Assembly (NCBI GenBank): GCA_043745805.1
Contig: JAYTSD010000046.1
Span: 63,560-127,559, forward strand
Direction of reading: 5' to 3'
DNA from: Fibrobacteria bacterium
GTDB taxonomy: Bacteria; Fibrobacterota; Fibrobacteria; UBA11236
Length of the DNA stretch: 64,000 nucleotides
The notes under the pieces were generated by a model, which did not search any database, was not told where the DNA came from, and worked only from the letters and a program-made list of their open reading frames with translations. Each line of letters begins with the position of its first letter. Position 1 is the first letter of the stretch. The position numbers were made by a program, and so were the translations under genes. Below, piece after piece: positions 53,088 through 63,016 of the stretch.

Positions 53088-54602
53088 TTAAAAAAGTCGA
53101 AATCGGATATTTTTTTCACTGCCCGATAAATTAACTATGGTGTCCTTGGGAAGATAATCGCGGTGTACCACTTTAATGCTATGTCTCCCTGCGGGCAATG
53201 ATAGACCACGTAAGGGCGTGGCGCCATATACTTTCCCATCAACTTCCACTTCCGCAAAAGGTGGCGCACTGAGTACGTTGATAGTAACATTTGTGTTACT
53301 TTGCGTGCTCACACTTTTCACTGTATTTGGTGCAACGGGCTTTACATGGGAAGCAGGGTTTTCCTTTAAGGGTGCCGGCACAGATGGGGTATTCGCTTCG
53401 GTCATAGCAGTAGTCGGAGGATTAGCGCTGGGAACTGATTTAACCGTATCCCGATTTTCAGTGGGAGTGATTATTGGCGTCGTTTTAGGTATGTGAACCT
53501 TAACTTCAGGGTTACCTACGGCAATGGTTTTTTTATTCGGCCAAAAAAAAGCAATGCCTACGGCCAATAAACCAATCAAAGCGCCAATAAGGATACCGCT
53601 ATTCGCCTTTTTTTTACCCAAAAGCCTAGGACTTAATGTTTTGGGTTTCCCCGTAATGGTGGGCTTTGTGGGCTCGGATACCGAGGCCGCCAGAGAGGCT
53701 TCAATAATTACCGGAGGTAAAACTTCGGCTAAAAAATCTTTGGCTACTTCATGCGCATCAAAAATATCCCGTCGCCCTAGCCAAGCGCGCAATTCATTTT
53801 GTACCCAACGAGCGCCTTGCCCACGATCCTCAGGTTTTTTTTGTAAAAGGGTGTCGGCCAAAGCGGCAAGTTCTGGATCCGCCTCAGGTAACACCGACAA
53901 TACCGAAACATGCGGTTCATCACAAATACGCCGCATAATCATGGGAATATTAGGGCCGGAAAAGGGACGCGTTCCAGTGAGTATATTGTAAAACACTGCC
54001 CCTAAGGAGAACATATCCGTTTGAGGTGTGGGTTTGCGTCCATCGATTTGTTCGGGAGACATAAAATTGGGGGAACCGAGCACACTTCCGGTTTGCGTTA
54101 AGTTTTGTTCACTAATATGCGCAATACCAAAATCGGCAACTTTTAAAAATCCCGATCGCGTGATCATTAAGTTTTCAGGTTTAATATCGCGATGCACTAC
54201 TCCAAATTTTTCAGCCGTTGCTAAACCATCGGCTGCTTGGCTAACAAAGGCGGCGCAGATAATAGCCGGCAAAGGTTTGCCATATTGTTGTAGCACCTCC
54301 TGCAAGGTGGGGCCATCAATATATTCCATGACCAAATATTGTTGACCTTCCACGCCATAATCGAATATTTCTACGATATGTTGATTACGTAAAGCGGCTG
54401 CGGTTTTCGCTTCAGAAGTAAAACGCGTGACTAAATTGGCATTATCATGCAAATGGGTATGAATCACCTTAATAGCGACTATGCGGTTTAAATTCGGGTC
54501 TAAAGCCTTATAAACCGTGGCCATGGCCCCTTGGCCCAATAATTCTATAACTTGATAGCGCCCAAAAGTGACGGGTACCGTTTTGTGTTCAAATTTTGCC
54601 AT
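53088..54602 (-). CDS. Hanks-type Ser/Thr kinase with TM segment and C-terminal PEGA-like domain
   Basis: LGQGAMATVY; VAIK; HRDIKPEN; DFG; YMS-like FMSPEQ; SAPPFAEVEVDG..YG.TP. Confidence 0.92.
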   Translation of the reverse strand: MAKFEHKTVPVTFGRYQVIELLGQGAMATVYKALDPNLNRIVAIKVIHTHLHDNANLVTRFTSEAKTAAALRNQHIVEIFDYGVEGQQYLVMEYIDGPTLQEVLQQYGKPLPAIICAAFVSQAADGLATAEKFGVVHRDIKPENLMITRSGFLKVADFGIAHISEQNLTQTGSVLGSPNFMSPEQIDGRKPTPQTDMFSLGAVFYNILTGTRPFSGPNIPMIMRRICDEPHVSVLSVLPEADPELAALADTLLQKKPEDRGQGARWVQNELRAWLGRRDIFDAHEVAKDFLAEVLPPVIIEASLAASVSEPTKPTITGKPKTLSPRLLGKKKANSGILIGALIGLLAVGIAFFWPNKKTIAVGNPEVKVHIPKTTPIITPTENRDTVKSVPSANPPTTAMTEANTPSVPAPLKENPASHVKPVAPNTVKSVSTQSNTNVTINVLSAPPFAEVEVDGKVYGATPLRGLSLPAGRHSIKVVHRDYLPKDTIVNLSGSEKNIRFRLF

Positions 54603-54663
54603 ATTTTAATCTCAATCTGTATACTCGAAAGTATACAATTGTCTCATTTTTGGCGCGTGGGAT

Positions 54664-55704
54664 TTATTCGGAAACCAATACGTTCAATTTGGCAGTTGCT
54701 TTTCCAGACCGTAACTCACAGATGTACATACCATGATTTACTTTTTGGTTTGAGGCATTTTTAAAATTCCAATTTATTTCTTGAGATTGCAAGGATGACG
54801 CATGCGCTACTTTCAGGCCATTGAGTGTGTAAATGTTGAGCTCCGTGTTATTGGGTAAGTTGGCGAAGCTTATACCTTGAACGGATTTTAATAAACGCAT
54901 GCTGGAGAAGGAGGTGTTTTCGTTTATGATTTTGGGGGAAGGGTTAATGCCTACGGGGCCGGTTGCTATGCCGGTAGCTCCCCAGAAGACGACGTAAGGA
55001 GCGCCGCCCATTTTTTTGACCTTAACGGCGGTTAGGATTTTGGTGGCAATGGGATGAAGTTCTATGCCGTCAACATTATGATTTTTTTGTTCCGCAACAG
55101 CATTTGTGCTGCTCCATTTCGCCATATTTTTAACTAGATAAAAAAGTACAGGGTCAGTAGGTAAGATAGAAGTGGTTCCTGTTCCGTAATCTTTAAGAAT
55201 TACAGGTTTAATCTCGGACGAGTCATTATAAACCAGAGTAAAACGAAGATTGGCATCACCTTCTGAGCTAGTCATAATGATAAATATTTTACTGTAATTT
55301 CCTCCTGGAACGGGAATGGTAAACGTATTCGTATCTGCAGCTTTAATATTGCGAGTTTGAAATCCTACTCCATCACTATTAGAGTAGTGTAATTGAATTT
55401 CAGGATGTCGAATATCCGCTGGAATTAAGGAGGAATCAGGTAAGGCAATAATATTTTTATCACCATGAAATAGAGAGGCTGCGGAAGTTAAATATCCATT
55501 GCCGCCACCATTGCCATCGACACCACCACCAGGAGTCCAAGTCACTAGCTTCCCATTGGTGAGAGTGGTTACTGTACGTGTAGTTAAAATTGAAGCCACA
55601 GGGAACTGTACCACTTGATCCGCTTGAGCGAGGCTTAGGCCAAGGGTTAAAAGCAGGGCAGAAACTGAGGTGGGTTTGTTTTTGAAAGAATATTTTTTGT
55701 TCAT
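54664..55704 (-). CDS. Secreted protein with T9SS-type/FlgD-like C-terminal domain
   Basis: Signal peptide; C-terminal IYTLNG.KV...W...GMYI pattern. Confidence 0.65.
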   Translation of the reverse strand: MNKKYSFKNKPTSVSALLLTLGLSLAQADQVVQFPVASILTTRTVTTLTNGKLVTWTPGGGVDGNGGGNGYLTSAASLFHGDKNIIALPDSSLIPADIRHPEIQLHYSNSDGVGFQTRNIKAADTNTFTIPVPGGNYSKIFIIMTSSEGDANLRFTLVYNDSSEIKPVILKDYGTGTTSILPTDPVLFYLVKNMAKWSSTNAVAEQKNHNVDGIELHPIATKILTAVKVKKMGGAPYVVFWGATGIATGPVGINPSPKIINENTSFSSMRLLKSVQGISFANLPNNTELNIYTLNGLKVAHASSLQSQEINWNFKNASNQKVNHGMYICELRSGKATAKLNVLVSE

Positions 55705-56473
55705 AATGTCCTAATCTTTTTGGCCTTAAAGGCCATATAAAACTAAGCGATTAGCCTAGCTTATGTCGGTAAAACAGCCATTAATTTACCTGCTATATTA
55801 TTCTATGATAAAGGGGGCGTCCTAAAATTGGATACTGCTTCACTGTATATTAATGCCTTTACTGTAAACAGGAATATCGGTAGCTTCAAGAGTTAATGTT
55901 TCTTGGAACTAGCTTTTCAATTTTAGTGATATTCTTACCAACACTAATTTGGGGAATCATCTTTGCTTTCAAATTCAAATCTTAAGGAATTAAATGTCTA
56001 ATTTCAAAATTAGTTTTTCTCAAAAATTAAAATTATGTGTTTTTGGAAAAAAATATTATCAATCAGTTGGCTTTGCCCCTTTATTAATAAAATCCCTCGT
56101 TTGCCTTTTAATTCCTAATTCTGCCTTTTTATTATTGGGAAATACTTAAAAAATCAAAGAAAATGGGGATTTGAAAATAAAATTATGGACTTTTCCGTAA
56201 ATTCGGGGAATGTCTATAATCTCATTTGATTCTTCTCGTGGTATATTTTCATCAAATATTTTTTGGTTGGTTGACAGTGGAGTGCTAAAATTCTTTTTCA
56301 AATTATTGGAAACAACACTAAAAAATGAGTCCCAAATTAAATACTTAAGTGATTTATAAAATATATTGGGTTTCATATCGTTGTGTTAATTTTTGATTAG
56401 ATGGATAACACAATGGTCTAAAGTATCAAATTTTGAAATCTATTTTCTTCAATAAACGCGTTCTAAAAATTAA

Positions 56474-56800
56474 TTAGGCTTCTTCGAATTTTACGCTATA
56501 TCTCACGTCAGCGGGCTTATCGGTATTATAGTTTATGATTACTAAATACCAAGCCTTAAAAATATCCGATACATTAAAATCATGAATTTTAACGTCATCT
56601 TGTCCACCATAATGATGAAACGTATTACTTCCATCCAAAATCGCATTTAGACCCTGATTATCTACCACAAAACTAGTCACTGGAACATCAGATTCAATAT
56701 GGATTTTTGCAATTGCTCTAAAACCGGCTGATGTAACTCTGGGAAATTCTGTATATCTAGCCTTAAATAATCTTGAAAATGGAATTTCTATATGCTTCAT
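56474..56800 (-). CDS. Small beta-rich hypothetical protein (transposon cargo)
   Basis: MKHIEIPF...WYLVIIN...; ATG56800 overlaps the TGA of the upstream ORF (ATGA). Confidence 0.6.
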   Translation of the reverse strand: MKHIEIPFSRLFKARYTEFPRVTSAGFRAIAKIHIESDVPVTSFVVDNQGLNAILDGSNTFHHYGGQDDVKIHDFNVSDIFKAWYLVIINYNTDKPADVRYSVKFEEA

Positions 56801-57153
56801 GTTTTTGTAGGCTTCGTTACAGTTTGTTTCGATAAATTCGCTTCCTCTTCTCCAAGCGTACTTAATTCGCTTCCACCAATATTTTTTATTCTTTCTATTG
56901 TTCTGATTATTATTGGGTAAAACAATATGGCAATTATTATTAGACTTCCCTTCCAATGTTTGTCTATGGCATCGAGAAATTGGTATATGCCCATGTTTGC
57001 CGTTGTATCGTGGGTGAAGAAAAGTTTGATTCCAAATTTTCCGAGAATAAAAAGGATTATTACAAAGATTCCCAATTCCAATACTTTGTAGATATTCGAA
57101 TATGATATTTTTCGGATTAAACCTAAGAAGAGGTCTTTGGCAACTTGTTTCAT
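56797..57153 (-). CDS. Two-TM membrane protein (transposon cargo); start uncertain
   Basis: Hydrophobic segments LGIFVIILFILG and SLIIIAILFYPII. Confidence 0.5.
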   Translation of the reverse strand: MKQVAKDLFLGLIRKISYSNIYKVLELGIFVIILFILGKFGIKLFFTHDTTANMGIYQFLDAIDKHWKGSLIIIAILFYPIIIRTIERIKNIGGSELSTLGEEEANLSKQTVTKPTKT

Positions 57154-57430
57154 TGAATTTAAAGCTATTGAATGAAATCTCAACCGTCAACCAATTCCAA
57201 AATCTCATAAATATAAACCCCCTAACTATCGCGTATTTATTGATATTGGGAGTGGGTTAGAAATTTATTTAATCCGGTTTTCGGCTCTAAATTAGAGGAG
57301 AGGGAACTAAAACTTTTACCTTCTAGTTCCCTCAATATTGGAAATCCGTATTACCCGCGCAACGAGATTTCCAGAAGAACAAATTTTAAATCGCGTAAAG
57401 GAAAGTAATATATCCAAATGGTTTATTCTT

Positions 57431-58360
57431 CTACTTCTTTATATTAATCTTCTTGCCATCCATCAACATCGATTTATTTTGTCCTAAATAATTCAGATTC
57501 TTTAAATCCTTATTACCAACATTTGAAGCTCGATATTTTAAATTCCCGATAATAGAGGCCGCACTTACTCCACTTGTTTGAATACACACTTTACCCCAAG
57601 ACAATCCCGCTCCTGTGGGTGCTGAGACTCTTATAACTTTGTGGCCCATTACATTCTTAGCAGTTAAAGAAGTCCACTTAAAATAAAGGGAAGTATCTAT
57701 TTCATCAAAGTTGAATAATGTGTCCTGAAATAAACTTGAGAAAGATTGTTGCACTGTTCTTTTTTGCACGATAAAATCTCCATCATGGTCAGAATATGCC
57801 GGTCTTAAAAATTCATTATAAACACCAAGTAAAGCTTGGCCTTCACCCAAATCAAAATCTACAAAGGTCCAATTGGCATCATAATAAGTAATACCATCGG
57901 GAGTGCTTTTACAAGTTACTGTGATATTCGGGATTGTATCATAGGTAACACACGCTTGATTCCATGATGCATTAACCGCTGTAGGTAAAGAAATTCTTAC
58001 ATAGCCTGGACCTATTAAATTGAAATTGGATAAATTGAATTCCTTGTTGTAAAGAGTGGTGTCATAATTATCAAAATTGAACACCCTCTTTTCATATAAA
58101 GAATGAATCCCAGTAGTCGTTGAATCGAATTGGACATTATAATCACCAGCAGCAGGAGGATAACTAGGACGAGTGAAACCGCCATAGCTCGATTTTACTT
58201 TTGAATTTTTTGGAATATGAAAATCGGCAAAGCTCCAATTGTGATCATAGATGGTTATTCCATCCGGTACATCTTTACAAACTCTTTTCGAATCCGCTTG
58301 AGAACAAATCGCAAATGCTAGAACTATGGCCAATGAGTTTTTTATGGAAGGCAAAAACAT
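57431..58360 (-). CDS. Secreted protein with two tandem ~120-aa repeat domains (transposon cargo)
   Basis: Signal peptide; repeats CKDVPDGITIYDHNWSFADF / CKSTPDGITYYDANWTFVDF; basic NYLGQ tail. Confidence 0.75.
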   Translation of the reverse strand: MFLPSIKNSLAIVLAFAICSQADSKRVCKDVPDGITIYDHNWSFADFHIPKNSKVKSSYGGFTRPSYPPAAGDYNVQFDSTTTGIHSLYEKRVFNFDNYDTTLYNKEFNLSNFNLIGPGYVRISLPTAVNASWNQACVTYDTIPNITVTCKSTPDGITYYDANWTFVDFDLGEGQALLGVYNEFLRPAYSDHDGDFIVQKRTVQQSFSSLFQDTLFNFDEIDTSLYFKWTSLTAKNVMGHKVIRVSAPTGAGLSWGKVCIQTSGVSAASIIGNLKYRASNVGNKDLKNLNYLGQNKSMLMDGKKINIKK

Positions 58361-58455
58361 TCTTTCCCCTTTTGTTTGATGTGAAATAGCTAAGACGGAA
58401 AAAGGTATCCTATACGACACCTAGTTCACAGAGTCTATTTTCAACTTTTTACGGG

Positions 58456-58698
58456 ATGGATTTAGAAGCTAAAGAAAAACAAGCATTTTTGAAGAAATTC
58501 GGCCACCATGTCGAGTTTCTTATCAATAAAAAATTCGAGTCCAAAGCTGAGTTTATGCGACAAACTGGCTTTTTAAAGAAATCCCTACATGAAATTTTAA
58601 TGGGAAATAGAGATACAAGAATTTTTACGGCAAATAAACTTGCGAAGGCTTTGGGAATTTCTCTGAAAAAATTATTCGAGGGAATGGAGAAGGATTAA
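58456..58698 (+). CDS. XRE-family HTH regulator
   Basis: FG..V...EILMG.RD.RI.T..KLAKALGISL..LF. Confidence 0.85.
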   Translation: MDLEAKEKQAFLKKFGHHVEFLINKKFESKAEFMRQTGFLKKSLHEILMGNRDTRIFTANKLAKALGISLKKLFEGMEKD

Positions 58699-58880
58699 GT
58701 CTTACTTTCGGACTTCTTCGCCTTTTCTAAACATACAGACCTAATCCAAGCACTTAATTCCAATCCTTTTTCATTGGCGAAATCGGATAGTAATTCCTTT
58801 TGATCTTCAGTTACGCGAATAAGGATAACCTCAGATTTCCGTTCTTTTTTGGTTTTTCGTCTTTTTATTGATGTTTCCAT
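58695..58880 (-). CDS. Ribbon-helix-helix (MobC/DUF1778-like) DNA-binding protein
   Basis: ILIRVTEDQKELL...A...GLELSAWIR. Confidence 0.75.
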   Translation of the reverse strand: METSIKRRKTKKERKSEVILIRVTEDQKELLSDFANEKGLELSAWIRSVCLEKAKKSESKT

Positions 58881-58958
58881 TGTATATCTAATATACATCT
58901 AAAATATTCTATTGACAAGACTCTTATTTGTATGTACATTAGTTATACAACAAAGGAG
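58881..58958 (+). promoter_or_regulatory. Transposase promoter with palindromic operators
   Basis: TTGACA(58912)-17 bp-TACATT(58935); palindromes TGTATA-N5-TATACA (58881-58897) and TTGTAT-N11-ATACAA (58928-58950); RBS AAGGAG. Confidence 0.7.
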
Positions 58959-58965
58959 TTTCAAA

Positions 58966-60183
58966 ATGGACGAGAGAAAATTAAAAGGCCGTCAACTTTC
59001 GAAATCAAATAGAATCCAAAAGACAAATGGAGTTTGGGTAGTTCCTTCTCAAACTGGTATTGGCGTCTATATCGTAAAAGAACTTAAAACCACTCCACAT
59101 TGTACTTGTCCAGATTTTGAAGCCCGAAATTGTAAATGCAAACATATTTATGCAGTCGAATTTATCATCGAAAGAAAAAAGAATAAAGACGGAAGCACAA
59201 CCATAACTAGCAAAATGGTTTTATCTGAAAGAAAAACATATTCTCAAGATTGGAGCAACTACAACAAAGCCCAAACCAACGAAAAGGAATATTTTGGAGT
59301 TCTTTTAAAAAATCTTTGCTCAGGAATTGAACATACTCCACAAAAAGGTGCTGGCAGACCAAAACTTCCTATTTCTGATGTCTTGTTTAGTTCCGTAATG
59401 AAAGTATATACCACATTTTCAGGACGTAGAGCAAAAAGTGATTTAAGGGATTGCGTTCAAAAGGATTTGATTTCTACGGATATGCATTACAACACAATTT
59501 TCAAATATTTAGAAAAGCCAGAAATAACTCCCATTTTGAAATCACTAATTGAACAATCAGCTTTACCACTCCAATCAGTCGAGAATAATTTTTCCATTGA
59601 TGCTTCAGGATTTTCCACTACCAATTATGAAAGATGGTATGATCAAAAATGGGGAAAATTATTTAGTCAAAAGAAATGGCTAAAAGCACATATCACTATT
59701 GGAAACAAAACCAATATTATTACTAGCGTGGAAATTACAGATTCTTATACCCATGACTCCACTCAATTTATGGAACTTGTAAATGACACCAATAAAAACT
59801 TTAATGTTAAAGAAATTATGGCAGACAAAGCGTATCTTAAAAAGACCGATATAGAACAAATTGTTAACATGGGAATTAACCCATTCATTCCTTTTAAGAG
59901 TAATACAACGGGAGTAGGATCTGAAATCTGGCAAAAACTATTTCACTTCTACAATTATAATCGCCCAGAATTTTTAAAACATTATCATGAGAGAAGTAAT
60001 GTCGAAACAACTTTCTCAATGATTAAAGGGAAATTTGGAATGGGATTACGTTCTAAAACTGATACGGCTCAAAAAAATGAATTATTATGCAAAATTTTAG
60101 CTCATAATATTTGTTGCTTGGTTAGTTCCATATTTGAATTGGGGATCGAAGTTGATTTTTTGGGAGGAAAATTGGCGGCTTAA
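58966..60183 (+). CDS. SWIM Zn-finger + DDE transposase (IS4/IS5 superfamily)
   Basis: CTCPDF...CKHI SWIM motif; SIDASG, ADKAY and YHERSNVETTFSMIK = Y(2)R(3)E(6)K. Confidence 0.92.
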   Translation: MDERKLKGRQLSKSNRIQKTNGVWVVPSQTGIGVYIVKELKTTPHCTCPDFEARNCKCKHIYAVEFIIERKKNKDGSTTITSKMVLSERKTYSQDWSNYNKAQTNEKEYFGVLLKNLCSGIEHTPQKGAGRPKLPISDVLFSSVMKVYTTFSGRRAKSDLRDCVQKDLISTDMHYNTIFKYLEKPEITPILKSLIEQSALPLQSVENNFSIDASGFSTTNYERWYDQKWGKLFSQKKWLKAHITIGNKTNIITSVEITDSYTHDSTQFMELVNDTNKNFNVKEIMADKAYLKKTDIEQIVNMGINPFIPFKSNTTGVGSEIWQKLFHFYNYNRPEFLKHYHERSNVETTFSMIKGKFGMGLRSKTDTAQKNELLCKILAHNICCLVSSIFELGIEVDFLGGKLAA

Positions 60184-60292
60184 GAATATTTTAAAAACGC
60201 TACAAATATTACATAACAATAAAAATTATTGGAAATTTTAGAGAAAAAGGTTATCGTTTGGACTCACGTTTCGAATCTAAAAAGGAGTATTT

Positions 60293-60487
60293 ATGGCATT
60301 AGTGAGAGGTGATAACGTTCGATTAAAATGCACACCCGAGACTGGAGTTTGGATGGTAATAATTGAATTTTGTGATTGTTCAGATAAAAATGGCCCCAAA
60401 AATGGAGTCAAATGTGAGTGGATGGATCCAAAAAGTAGCGAACGAAGAGAAGGTGTTTGGGATTTAATTTCCCTAACTAAAGACTAA
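60293..60487 (+). CDS. YodC/DUF2158-like small protein (transposon cargo)
   Basis: GD.VRLK...MVI...VKCEW pattern; RBS AAGGAG. Confidence 0.6.
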   Translation: MALVRGDNVRLKCTPETGVWMVIIEFCDCSDKNGPKNGVKCEWMDPKSSERREGVWDLISLTKD

Positions 60488-61110
60488 ACTCCTAAAATTT
60501 TTTTATAAAGATCTGTACGCATAGCAATCATAAATTGCTCTCATTTTGATTGCGGAATGTTTATGCTTTTTTCCCAAACCATCTTTTCAATTAAATATTT
60601 CAAAATTTTGTTTATCATATAAATACCTTATTTGACTTTATTTATATGGGGGAAAAATTTCTGCCTCTTTATTCAAATAGTTGCCTTTTTATTACTTAAA
60701 CTTGGGGATTTATGAGGAATAAAGGGGCAAGGCCCAATCAGTTTTACTCCCACTAATGGCTTTTCATAGGTATGGCTATGAACAATATTATAGCAGAGAA
60801 CAAATTAATTTTTCCTATAAAGAACTTGGACACCTTAAATATTTTGAAGAGGAAACGGCACTTGCTCTTATCGGAAACCCTAAAGAGCTAAAATCTTATG
60901 AGAGATATCGAAAAATTCGTAGGAAATTTGGTATTGAAATTGATGGTGCATTAGAAGTGCTAAAAGTTTATGGTAAAAAAGAAAAAGTACCGTTGGATCC
61001 ATTCGGAAGTGACAGAGCGCAACAAACTGCTCATAATGATTACTAATGATAATACAGATGATCTAATTGAAGCATTTTAAATTCCTCCACTTCCAACGGA
61101 TGCATGCACC

Positions 61111-61247
61111 GTGTAACAAACCTGATTAACCTGTCTGTGCGCGGCTGTCACGCCAATTGCTTACGCAATCGTCGCGCAAGTTCACTTCAGCCTTGATCTT
61201 CCAGTTGAAGGCTTCGTCCGCGCTCGCAGGTTATCGGCGTGTTAAAC
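61111..61247 (+). repeat. attC-like integron recombination site 1
   Basis: GTGTAAC ... GTTAAAC ends; long imperfect palindrome; near-identical to 62226-62363. Confidence 0.8.
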
Positions 61248-61646
61248 GGAACCTAGATCCTTGGCAAATATAGAAACGTTGGCGTTACCTGTTCCTTAAA
61301 ACCGAAGTGATAAATTTACTATTCTATAAAAATATTTTCCGGCGTTCTGTATATCTACTTTGCTATTTAGATAATCCTGTGGAACACATATTTACAATTG
61401 GTCGCCATTAATTTGGGGCCGCATTTAGAAGGTTTTCGGGAACTAGAATCAGCCTGTCGCCGCATAGATCACCTGTTCCACACGCGATCTATGCAGACGA
61501 AATTACTTTAGACTATGTTTGAATCATTCAAAAACCCATTAATTAGCTACTAGGTAATCAAATTATGCATATTCTGAGCCTAGTGCAAAATTTGACTCCT
61601 AAATAAATATTGACATTGTATATACCATTAGCTTATACCATTTTAA

Positions 61647-61907
61647 ATGGAAATAATATGGGATCCCACGAAGCAAGATAAACTGAGAGTCGAGGGTGGA
61701 ATCGATCTAGAAGAAATCAAAGGTTTGATTGAGAATTAGAAATATTTTAACATTTTAGAAAACCCATCTCGCGAAGACCAACTTTTAATACTCTTGAATT
61801 ATAAAGCTTACGTACACGTTGTAGTTGTAAAGGTTGTTCACGAAAAGATGATCATAAAAACATGTTACCCAAGCAGAAAATTTCATCAAATAATAAAAGG
61901 AAGATAA
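61647..61907 (+). pseudogene. BrnT-like toxin with in-frame TAG at 61737
   Basis: MEIIWDPTKQ...IEN*KYFNILENPSR...IIKTCYPSRKF, homologous to 62750-63016. Confidence 0.85.
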
Positions 61908-62231
61908 ATGAAAAAAATAATATTGGATGAAGAAGAGCTAGAAATCGAAAAAAATATCGGGAAATTCAGGCCTGTTTCAAGGGAAAAAAGGAAACAAATA
62001 GAGGCTTTAATAGAGCAAGGACGTAAAAGTAGAGCAATTAGTCTCCGCATAAATGAAGCGGATTTAGAGTTGTTAAAGAAAAAGGCAAATAGAAATGGAT
62101 TGCCTTATCAGACAATGATCAATGTTGTTATCCATAAATATGTTACTGACAATTTTTATGACAAAGATGAAATCAGTAAAATTTTAAATATTAATAAGCC
62201 TAATTTGAAACGGACAAAGTTAGCCGTTTAA
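61908..62231 (+). CDS. BrnA/CopG-like antitoxin
   Basis: LDEEELEIE; ISLRI...DL..LKKKA...GLPYQT.I..V.HKY. Confidence 0.88.
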   Translation: MKKIILDEEELEIEKNIGKFRPVSREKRKQIEALIEQGRKSRAISLRINEADLELLKKKANRNGLPYQTMINVVIHKYVTDNFYDKDEISKILNINKPNLKRTKLAV

Positions 62232-62363
62232 CAAAGCCGATCAACCTGTCTGTGCGCGGCTGTCACGCCGCTTGTTTACGCAATCGTCGCGCCAGTTCAC
62301 TTCAGCCTTCAACTTTCCAGTTGAAAGCTTCGTCCGTGCTCGCAGGTTATCGGCGTGTTATAC
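62226..62363 (+). repeat. attC-like integron recombination site 2
   Basis: R'' GTTTAAC contains the antitoxin stop codon; GCCGATcAACCTG pairs with CAGGTTATCGGC leaving one extrahelical base; R' GTTATAC. Confidence 0.88.
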
Positions 62364-62714
62364 GGGTGTAGATCTTGGGCAAATTTAGAAACGTTTAGGT
62401 TACCTTTCTTCTAAAATCATGTACGATGTGTTGCGATTCCCGTACAACAAAATCAATTAGTACCATCTCATTGAATTATTTTATCGAGCAAAGCGAGATT
62501 TTTTTAATCGCCGAAAAATCACTTTTTATGATTTAAAAAAAATCCAAATTCCTACAATTAATAAATCGCTATAGGTTTAATGAAGATCTGTCGCCGCATA
62601 AAGTTCGCGTTCCGCTCACTCTATACGGACAAAATCATTTTTGGCTAAATTTGAAACATTTTGAAGAATGAGTGTGTGAACCAACAAATATAGGTGTTTA
62701 ACCCGCCAAAAACG

Positions 62715-62749: not shown

Positions 62750-63016
62750 ACGAGAATTTTGTGGGATGAGGAAAAGAATCAGAAATCGATTGCAGAAAGA
62801 GGTATCAGCTTTGGGGAAGTCGCTGCGTGTATTCTGAAAGATGAAGTATTAGATGTCATGAAAAATCCAGTTCGGTCAGGGCAATTTTATTTCATAATGA
62901 AGTTAAAAGACTACACTCACGTAGTTCCATTCGTCATTAATGAGAACGAAGAAATTATTCTAAAAACAGTTTTCCCAAATAGAAAGCTTCACAAAAAATT
63001 CGGAGGAAAAGAATGA
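62750..63016 (+). CDS. BrnT-like toxin; homologous start codon reads ACG (TTG at 62759 is the alternative)
   Basis: (T)RILWDEEKN...RGISF...NPVR..Q...VVPFV....ILKTVFPNRK. Confidence 0.8.
   Translation, partial: TRILWDEEKNQKSIAERGISFGEVAACILKDEVLDVMKNPVRSGQFYFIMKLKDYTHVVPFVINENEEIILKTVFPNRKLHKKFGGKE

Follow-up and report, generated by a model that had tools for sequence, protein, structure and literature searches.

What kind of element occupies positions 56069–60734 of a 64,000-nucleotide stretch of a Fibrobacteria bacterium contig (hereafter, the window), and does it move together with the genes it contains? We analyzed its ends, its transposase, the remaining open reading frames and their counterparts in homologous loci. 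These data indicate that the segment is very probably an autonomous unit transposon (transporter IS), mobilised as one piece by its own single transposase.

Element boundaries and end structure

The element spans 4,666 bp and has a GC content of 33.0%, compared with 40.0% for the genome. The initial annotation, made from the sequence alone, described 17-bp terminal inverted repeats with one mismatch, and these are indeed complementary at 16 of 17 positions, the left tip reading GGCTTTG and the right tip GGCCTTG, with the mismatch at the right end. The perfect 9-bp target duplication it reported was also recovered: CAATCAGTT adjoins both element ends as a direct repeat, identical at nine of nine positions (Table 1). 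When the 3.95-Mb genome was scanned, the end pattern occurred exactly at the two element ends only; the four other matches each carried two mismatches, and the reversed end pattern, serving as a control, gave zero matches in the genome. No inner ends were found within the window element, for example near the transposase gene, and no IS copies flank it. The layout is that of a unit transposon: one pair of ends encloses the passengers as well as the sole transposase gene, and one target duplication borders the whole.

Both ends also carry subterminal copies of the end core. At the left end, this motif is 92.6% identical to positions 45–71 of the G041 element. The right subterminal copies share the orientation of the left ones and are thus opposite to the right terminal copy, such that all left copies point inward and the right end is mixed, matching the family pattern. 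The offsets are approximately 34 and 55 on the left and −54 and −74 on the right, compared with 23/43 and −44/−64 in most relatives. Among 42 elements, end-core copies were found at fixed offsets of +23/+43 on the left in 24 and of −44 on the right in 19, over a background inside elements of mostly <0.7 copies per kb.

Table 1 Features of the element and its borders (window coordinates)
Feature	Position	Strand	Remarks
Left target-site duplication copy, 9 bp, CAATCAGTT	56060..56068	.	
Left terminal inverted repeat, starts GGCTTTG	56069..56085	+	
Two TIR-core copies (TGCCyyTTTATT-like), left end, oriented like terminal copy	56102..56134	+	76% to 60662-60694
ORF, 76 aa, doubtful gene	56146..56376	-	No family in Pfam, NCBIfam, PADLOC
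Cargo gene, 108 aa, start overlaps stop of gene upstream	56477..56800	-	No family (PADLOC among searches)
Cargo gene, 128 aa, membrane-like by eye	56797..57183	-	No family in Pfam, NCBIfam, PADLOC
Stable hairpin between two cargo genes, 13-bp stem	57290..57330	-	-22.3 kcal/mol, z -4.5
Cargo gene, 310 aa, two internal repeats, hydrophobic N-terminus by eye	57431..58363	-	Orphan
XRE-type HTH gene, 80 aa, cargo-side regulator	58456..58698	+	Weak: HTH_26 7e-4, PADLOC Control_protein 3e-4
Ribbon-helix-helix (RHH) gene, 67 aa, divergent from transposase gene	58695..58898	-	NikA-like 5.5e-8 (Pfam); RelB antitoxin 6e-7
Divergent promoter/operator-like region, back-to-back candidate sites sharing TTGACAA/TTGTCAA, TGTAT-type palindromes	58899..58965	.	
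Transposase, 405 aa	58966..60183	+	N-terminal SWIM zinc finger ~aa 1-70, IS5/IS903-type DDE core aa 95-382
ORF downstream of transposase gene, 64 aa	60293..60487	+	No Pfam/NCBIfam match at E<=0.1
Two TIR-core copies, right end, subterminal	60662..60694	+	At -74 and -54
Right terminal inverted repeat, GGCCTTG read inward	60718..60734	-	
Right target-site duplication copy, 9 bp, CAATCAGTT	60735..60743	.	

The transposase

The transposase gene takes up 1,218 of the 4,666 bp (26%, close to the quarter first estimated), and its reading frame is intact. Its product matches the Pfam models DDE_Tnp_1 (1.4e-18) and SWIM (9e-5), both over the gathering scores. The proposed N-terminal SWIM motif is further backed by 20 homologs, among which zinc-finger residues C46, C48, and H60 are invariant and C58 nearly so. 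D212, D287, Y340, R343, E347, and K354 are invariant in the same homologs, which bears out both the Y(2)R(3)E(6)K spacing and the intact D-D-E core read previously. The top NCBIfam model was IS5_2 (NF033579), which aligned to aa 95–382 with 121.3 bits, below its 140-bit cut-off. The predicted structure has an RNase-H-type core; its best full-length superposition was with Tn5 transposase (TM 0.43), and TnsB gave only a weak fold match to the model. One relative without the SWIM domain has multi-site ends and cargo alike, which weakens the idea that SWIM enables them.

Regulators and the putative divergent promoter region

The RHH regulator suggested earlier was supported by a NikA-like match, and its gene is kept together with the transposase gene in the closest relative (74% amino acid identity). 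For the second suggested regulator, of XRE type, an HTH-type match exists but is weak, the HTH_26 match falling under the model's cut-off. Between the RHH and transposase genes lie the two top-scoring promoter-like sites, each agreeing at 10 of 12 positions; such sites are consensus matches, and the 19 counted in the region were not above the 20.9 in shuffles. Blocks of this intergenic region are conserved in the G041 element; the TGTAT-type palindromes within it were picked out by reading the sequence. The element may regulate itself, as read from the conserved small divergent regulator and the conserved intergenic region only.

Cargo genes of this copy

Besides the transposase gene, the element contains at least six ORFs, and searches against Pfam and NCBIfam revealed no ATPase or resolvase genes among them. 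The cargo of this copy is orphan. Its largest member, the 310-aa gene, had been described as encoding a secreted repeat protein: the repeat was borne out, as a 64-nt internal repeat with copies 366 bp apart, and the hydrophobic N-terminus was judged by eye only. This protein had no family in Pfam, NCBIfam, or PADLOC searches, its best atlas score was 0.79, and among 40 relatives its gene had one weak partial match only (G006, E 7e-4, with 2 stops inside). As for the two or three unknown genes listed initially, the 128-aa and 108-aa genes stand as an overlapping pair on the - strand, and the third, the 76-aa ORF, is doubtful. The label "YodC-like" for the 64-aa ORF was not supported, as this ORF had no Pfam or NCBIfam match at E<=0.1. 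The hairpin between two of the cargo genes matches part of the genome's second element (C8:2602-2641) at 93% identity.

Close copies and the search for empty sites

That second element is a diverged copy with GGCCTTGCCC ends, a 9-bp target-site duplication (AGTAAAATT), and different cargo. A multicopy repeat splits its transposase gene, and the genome holds only one intact element copy. The closest relative, found in another genus, measures 3,488 bp and has terminal inverted repeats complementary at 16 of 16 positions and the target-site duplication TACTGGTTC; it has the ends, the RHH gene, and the transposase in common with the window element, and its cargo is all different. The small regulator is the sole non-transposase gene common to the window element, the second copy, and this relative. 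An empty site was sought in 40 relatives and in four public sequencing runs but not found, so movement at this locus is inferred rather than observed. The element is present in the four runs, which come from one study and were all kept as contigs, and none of them shows a junction that skips it.

A widespread family of cargo-carrying relatives

We next consider the homologous loci, of which 50 out of 79, from bacteria and archaea, have GGCTTTG-type ends with a perfect target-site duplication. The duplication was 9 bp long in 42 of these delimited elements and 10 bp in 8, and their lengths range from 2,464 to 7,812 bp, none being IS-sized. The remaining 29 loci yielded no pair of inverted repeats and duplication; many of these are on short or truncated contigs, and 5 show good inverted repeats that lack a duplication. 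The window element shares the family's traits: a transposase of ~400 aa in which a CxC...CxH finger at the N-terminus precedes an IS903-like core, and a small DNA-binding gene that lies divergent, just upstream of the transposase gene. This slot is occupied by a small zinc-ribbon gene in 22 of 43 elements and by HTH (HTH_3) or RHH genes in others, the window element having an RHH gene.

Our cargo survey covered 195 ORFs from delimited elements, about half of the cargo having no family; in GC-rich genomes the ORFs were picked crudely, by taking the longest ones. Of 41 elements, 12 carry DNA methyltransferases of the restriction-modification type, in several cases along with a nuclease partner, and toxin-type cargo (PemK, PIN, HipA, AbiEii-like ATPase) was found in 4 further elements. 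All-against-all ORF clustering over 42 elements gave no other widely shared family beyond the small regulator. Some relatives (L031, L043, and L074) contain nested foreign IS elements.

The initial annotation had postulated a poorly described, IS903-related family of non-composite cargo transposons. This proposal holds among the homologs because their ends are equivalent, their duplications measure 9 bp or sometimes 10 bp, and their cargo varies. No description of cargo elements of the IS903 lineage or with SWIM transposases was found in the literature or among 72,556 plasmids; going by the literature, PGAP names, and this plasmid collection, the family is apparently widespread and unnamed.

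Proposed mechanism and alternative explanations

We suggest as a likely course that the transposase recognises the inverted ends with their GGCTTTG tips, and probably also the repeated end-core copies just inside each, cuts at the ends, and inserts the element into a target opened by cuts staggered by 9 bp; this would produce the CAATCAGTT duplication. The RHH product most likely represses the shared back-to-back promoters of its own gene and the transposase gene. The XRE gene, the gene for the exported-looking 310-aa protein, the 128-aa and 108-aa pair, and the 64-aa ORF would form the exchangeable cargo, in a slot that in relatives often holds restriction-modification or toxin-type modules. 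The binding of parts of the protein to the repeats, repression by the RHH product, cut-and-paste chemistry, and present activity are all points that we infer.

Several features could also suit a fossil that arrived by transposition and is now immobile, part of its content having accreted or decayed after insertion; if so, the earlier view of the element as recently active is wrong. The genome has a single intact copy, a different repeat disrupts the sister copy, the ends contain one mismatch, and all four runs show the element in place. However, the duplication is perfect, the transposase gene is an unbroken frame that keeps every catalytic and zinc residue, and the ends and subterminal repeats are preserved, and we regard immobility as unlikely, though a serious candidate. 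It is far harder to credit that the element is pseudo-compound, that is, that an IS-sized core used a distant surrogate end and carried neighbouring host DNA, making the cargo a captured flank. Such capture would fit the entirely different cargo of close relatives and the foreign IS elements nested in three of the relatives, but there is no inner end near the window transposase gene, 0 of 50 delimited relatives are IS-sized, subterminal repeats recur in the same order at the left ends, as would be expected of a designed end, and the GC content of the element, cargo included, is 7 points below that of the host.

We give almost no credence to a reading in which the extra genes encode accessory proteins for transposition, like those of Tn7 or Tn552, instead of being cargo. 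A small DNA-binding gene always adjoins the transposase gene, and the two ends, like those of multi-protein transposons, hold multiple sites and are unequal; yet besides the regulator no gene is common to the window element, the second copy, and the 74% relative, the clustering over 42 elements is equally devoid of another widely shared family, and Pfam and NCBIfam showed no ATPase or resolvase in the window element.

Beyond the reading of the locus as a unit transposon, a broader interpretation can be offered tentatively, at a confidence just short of even: the window element may belong, as one of its bacterial representatives, to a large clade of unit transposons that derives from IS903, has no name yet, and is spread over many bacterial phyla, DPANN, and other archaea. 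In this clade exchangeable cargo would be obligate, much of it restriction-modification or toxin-type defence modules, and would go along with a SWIM finger on the transposase, ordered, unequal ends with multiple sites, and a dedicated small regulator in divergent orientation. The clade might then be a major overlooked vehicle of defence genes in uncultured prokaryotes, whose symmetric target preference (CC-N9-GG, often a palindrome loop) would make it land beside its own kin and build tandem arrays.

A widespread sister lineage of IS903 with 1–6 kb of exchangeable genes, multi-site ends, and its own regulator, never IS-sized among 50 elements, would show how a simple IS can turn into a dedicated gene vehicle, and would add a new route by which restriction-modification and toxin-type modules move among uncultured bacteria and archaea. 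It would also bear on annotation, as the ~400-aa proteins of this family are now labelled just "transposase" and their cargo is read as chromosomal. Because it consists of one transposase, a pair of short ends, and a slot for several kb of cargo, this compact system should be easy to test and is possibly a useful tool.

Comparison with known systems

Transporter IS have been described in other IS families. Like the window element, such unit transposons have passenger genes that accompany one transposase within the same pair of inverted ends, as defined in PMC9330008. Tn7-like transposons resemble the SWIM-DDE family in having several site-like repeats per end, unequally arranged, and defence-rich cargo. 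Tn7 itself has multi-site unequal ends and is a carrier of defence cargo; the window transposase differs from it as a single-protein DDE enzyme of another family, and neither a TnsC-type ATPase nor a target selector was seen in the window element with Pfam and NCBIfam. Eukaryotic MULE/MuDR transposases also combine a SWIM zinc finger with a DDE domain, on an IS256/MULE-like core. In the window transposase, by contrast, the SWIM finger is N-terminal and the core is DDE_Tnp_1 (IS4/IS5-like).

The IS903 group shares GGCTTTG-tipped ends, a 9-bp target-site duplication, a DDE_Tnp_1 domain with Y(2)R(3)E(6)K, and the same best NCBIfam model, NF033579. IS903 is a textbook minimal insertion sequence, and the profile initially given for its group (~1 kb, GGCTTTG ends, 9-bp duplication, neither SWIM nor passengers) agreed with ISVa2 (plasmid NZ_AP014861), which is 1,054 bp long, with GGCTTTG ends and a 9-bp duplication, and whose only gene encodes a SWIM-less transposase of 306 aa. 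ISVa2 is without subterminal repeats, whereas the window element, at 4,666 bp, has these together with a regulator and cargo. The ISVa2 transposase scores 387 bits against NF033579, compared with the sub-cut-off 121.3 bits of the window transposase, which shows 23% identity over the core and carries an extra 94-aa SWIM extension.

Structure and composition of the element

The element is bounded by terminal inverted repeats (TIRs; repeat pair I21), the left one beginning with GGCTTTG, that match each other at 16 of 17 positions, and copies of a 9-bp target-site duplication (TSD), CAATCAGTT, abut both outer borders. These ends and the positions of the flanking duplications therefore delimit an element of 4,666 bp, bearing out the inverted GGCTTTG-type ends and 9-bp duplication claimed in the initial annotation; the element is a real transposon. 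Across the 3.95-Mb assembly, only these two ends matched the end pattern exactly. Allowing two mismatches yielded four further matches, and a reversed control pattern yielded none. A nucleotide search of the host assembly recovered no further copy of the element's DNA. By composition, the element is foreign DNA: its GC is 33.0%, where the window and the genome each have 40.0%.

Features of the element and its neighborhood (window coordinates)
Feature	Position	Strand	Description
Protein kinase gene	53088-54602		Upstream neighbor; 504-aa Ser/Thr protein kinase, PEGA domain at C-terminus
TATTAT hexamer	56054-56059		Immediately left of the duplicated 9 bp
TSD, left copy	56060-56068		Abuts left border
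TIR, left	56069-56085		Starts GGCTTTG
Cargo ORF			310 aa; internal repeat D1; orphan
Cargo ORFs		-	128 aa and 108 aa; overlapping pair; orphans
ORF			76 aa; doubtful gene; orphan
Hairpin			Between two cargo genes; 13-bp stem
HTH gene	58456-58698	+	80 aa; weak matches only (HTH_26 7e-4; PADLOC "control protein" 3e-4)
RHH gene	58695-58898	-	67 aa; divergent from transposase gene; NikA-like 5.5e-8, RelB antitoxin 6e-7
Transposase gene	58966-60183	+	405 aa; DDE_Tnp_1 and SWIM (Pfam)
ORF			64 aa; after transposase gene; orphan
TIR, right	60718-60734		Pairs with left TIR
TSD, right copy	60735-60743		Abuts right border
ORF	60756-61046		96 aa; ATG 21 bp past the right end of the element
Direct repeat, copy 1	61109-61301		193 bp
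CopG/BrnA-type antitoxin gene	61908-62231		Downstream of element
Direct repeat, copy 2	62224-62416		193 bp
BrnT-type toxin-like gene	62759-63016		Downstream of element

The two Pfam domains of the transposase are SWIM (9e-5, aa 41-65) and DDE_Tnp_1 (1.4e-18, aa 209-382). In an alignment of 20 homologs, the zinc-finger residues C46, C48, and H60 were invariant and C58 nearly so; D212, D287, E347, Y340, R343, and K354 were all invariant. The best NCBIfam model, IS5_2 (NF033579), aligned over its full span to aa 95-382 with 121 bits, below its 140-bit cut-off. An AlphaFold model (mean pLDDT 75) has a small strand-and-helix domain at aa 1-70 and a core of the RNase-H type, with a disordered linker at 77-103. 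Searching folds with this model returned only generic DDE/RNase-H matches (ISCth4, Tn5 with the best TM of 0.43, P element, and integrases), and a sequence search of solved structures gave no match with E <0.2. The 67-bp region between the RHH and transposase genes contains the element's two best promoter-like sites, which lie back to back and have TTGACAA/TTGTCAA in common; TGTAT-type palindromes are also visible there.

The orphan ORFs of 310, 128, 108, 76, and 64 aa matched no family in Pfam, NCBIfam, PADLOC, or PHROGs; the sole exception was a weak match of the 64-aa ORF to a PHROG without an assigned function. The "YodC-like" label previously given to that ORF was not confirmed. For the 310-aa protein, the best atlas score was 0.79, and 40 related genomes offered a single weak, partial match interrupted by stops (in G006, E 7e-4).

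A conserved backbone with exchangeable cargo

Of 38 further genomes in the order, one from a different genus (G041) encodes a transposase with 74% identity, within an element of 3,488 bp with TIRs matching at 16/16 positions and the TSD TACTGGTTC. Only three parts align between the two elements: the RHH and transposase genes (71% nucleotide identity), including long identical blocks kept in their intergenic region, a subterminal repeat (92.6%), and the right end. The remaining genes on either side of the transposase gene are all unlike. This comparison is direct evidence that the backbone is conserved and the cargo exchangeable.

The host genome itself holds a second, diverged element, split over two contigs (C8 and C31) whose starts encode the two parts of a transposase relative (51% and 44% identity). 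It runs from C8:4530 toward the start of that contig and terminates at C31:1354; its ends are GGCCTTGCCC, and the TSD AGTAAAATT is present on both sides. At the left end, the element's own end core occurs three times, and the right end shows the same mixed orientation as in the window element. The element has an XRE-like gene and, divergent from its transposase gene, a zinc-ribbon gene; its cargo is unlike that of the window element, whose hairpin recurs here at 93% identity. A multicopy repeat found at many contig ends (C8:1-98, C31:1-95, and also on C2, C22, C23, C24, C25, C27, C37, and C45) splits the transposase gene. This repeat probably represents one or two insertion sequences (ISs); an IS3 insertion as the interrupter was considered and withdrawn, the supportable statement being a multicopy repeat at many contig ends. 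The second element also encloses a tRNA gene (C8:4061-4136, or L018:2960-3035 in locus coordinates; Rfam 57 bits), which ARAGORN reads as 76 nt with anticodon GCT; the host's canonical 89-nt tRNA-Ser(GCT) lies on C43. If so, the transposon cargo would include a short-arm tRNA of an unusual kind.

A widespread family of cargo-carrying elements

More than 6,700 protein relatives of near-equal length share about 50% identity with the transposase, the majority with both Pfam domains; those that are named are labeled "transposase" and no more. Scanning a single genome for each species gave 79 loci from many bacterial phyla as well as DPANN and other archaea, and a metagenome scan for close relatives gave two loci, both distant. 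We delimited elements with a script that required inverted ends adjoined by a perfect 9-bp TSD. Of its 43 candidates, L021 and L078 were removed because their ends were not of the GGCTTTG type, leaving 41; these two first delimitations were spurious, and both loci were later re-delimited under a relaxed search. That search, applied to the other 38 loci, added one element with a 9-bp TSD and eight with perfect 10-bp TSDs (L021, L025, L030, L042, L048, L054, L055, and L056). In total, 50 of the 79 loci were delimited, at lengths of 2,464-7,812 bp, and none of these 50 was IS-sized in a search that permitted small sizes. Among the undelimited loci, five had good ends but no TSD, and most of the rest lay on cut or short contigs. 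Three long elements (L031, L043, and L074) contain nested copies of foreign ISs. At L047 (4,088 bp) and L059 (3,393 bp), the whole contig is exactly one element, as expected if these occurred in multicopy or free form in those samples.

In 22 of 43 elements (counting the second element of the host), the opposite strand just ahead of the transposase gene encodes a zinc-ribbon ORF (CxxCGHxW...CPxCKSPYW) that reached no Pfam family above cut-off and fell in atlas clusters without names. The same putative regulator slot is occupied by an HTH_3 or RHH gene in other elements, with RHH in the window and G041 elements. Inside the ends, the 11-nt end core is repeated at fixed offsets: in forward orientation at +23 and/or +43 at the left end in 24/42 elements, and opposite to the terminal copy at -44 at the right end in 19/42; the motif is rare in element interiors. 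The subterminal repeats of the window element (D2) follow the same plan with different spacings. One relative without a SWIM domain (L101, 42% identity), a 2,505-bp element with a 9-bp TSD, has both subterminal repeats and cargo, so neither feature can be credited to the SWIM finger on this evidence. The idea that SWIM binds the subterminal repeats is weakened by this element, in which the layout of the repeats is the same.

To characterize the cargo, we collected 209 ORFs that overlapped neither one another nor a transposase gene, and discounted six from the window element, four extending over an element edge, and four in L083 that duplicate those of L081; Pfam was searched with the 195 that were left. 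DNA methyltransferase domains were found in 12 of 41 elements (L031, L034, L038, L039, L043, L053, L065, L069, L079, L082, L090, and L096), several together with a nuclease (Eco47II, MunI, or PD-(D/E)XK; Mrr as a fused domain). Four more elements carry toxin-type genes: PemK (L067), PIN (L080), HipA (L074), and an AbiEii-like ATPase (L094). Other cargo families were P63C, IrrE/M78, DUF3800, NYN, protein kinase, and a ClpP-like protein, and about ten elements, like the window element, had no recognizable cargo family. Overall, relatives share ends, TSDs, and backbone and exchange their cargo, in support of the family-level inference made initially.

Insertion sites and genomic neighborhood

By crude ORF calls, 23 of 45 family insertion sites are intergenic, a class that takes up 14% of random positions; 10 of the 45 fall at most 120 bp upstream of a start, compared with 5.6% at random. 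These counts show a bias, not exact targeting of promoter edges, and selection against gene disruption would yield an equal bias. Across the 44 sites with 9-bp TSDs (loci L022-L097, window, and G041), the target consensus is symmetric, t-C-C [N9] G-G-a, with C at TSD position 2 in 25/44 and G at position 8 in 22/44. The window element's own target site fits it poorly. Many targets consist of a long perfect palindrome or a terminator-like hairpin, the TSD occupying the loop (e.g., L022, L024, L027, L033, L039, L052, and L068).

At three places (L086:6748-11296, L072:11481-11533, and L077:6806-8271), family elements lie head to tail with exactly one copy of a 9-bp TSD between them. The L086 element sits between a right end and a left end of another type, and at L077 a 1,423-bp element without a transposase adjoins a full one. 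These arrays suggest insertion beside ends already in place, where the GCC-N9-GGC junction is similar to the target consensus.

A DNA search with window 54600-62300 in 40 relatives, none of the same genus, found no empty site, only short unrelated matches. No joint skipping the element was found in four runs of one sediment study, in two of which (X3 and X4) low depth and fragmentary assembly make gaps uninformative; contigs from sediment runs cross the element or its right junction, and two of the four runs may have yielded the DNA studied here. Given the start codon just past the right end and the TATTAT hexamer left of the TSD, insertion probably separated the 96-aa ORF from its promoter. 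Further downstream, the 193-bp direct repeat (86% identity) flanks the antitoxin gene, and its second copy is joined back to the first by a contig in two runs.

Comparison with known elements

A search of 72,556 plasmids found no full-length relative of the transposase, only IS903-group transposases with 23-25% identity over aa 76-396. Similarly, a full-text literature search, largely at abstract level, returned nothing on SWIM-bearing IS5/IS903 transposons or such cargo carriers, and the accessible part of PMC6563490 does not treat them. The IS903-group comparator ISVa2, from a Vibrio plasmid, is 1,054 bp long, with 18-bp GGCTTTG-tipped ends and a 9-bp TSD; its transposase, of 306 aa, reaches 387 bits on NF033579. 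ISVa2 shares with the window element the end tips, the TSD length, and the catalytic core, and differs in being without the subterminal end-core repeats. The window element departs from the IS903 group in size and in its content beyond a single gene, and falls short of the curated NF033579 score; for these reasons we kept it out of that group. Its structure is that of a transporter IS, or unit transposon, as defined in PMC9330008. Judging from its anatomy and these comparisons, we infer that it would move in the manner of an IS903-group IS, with additions.
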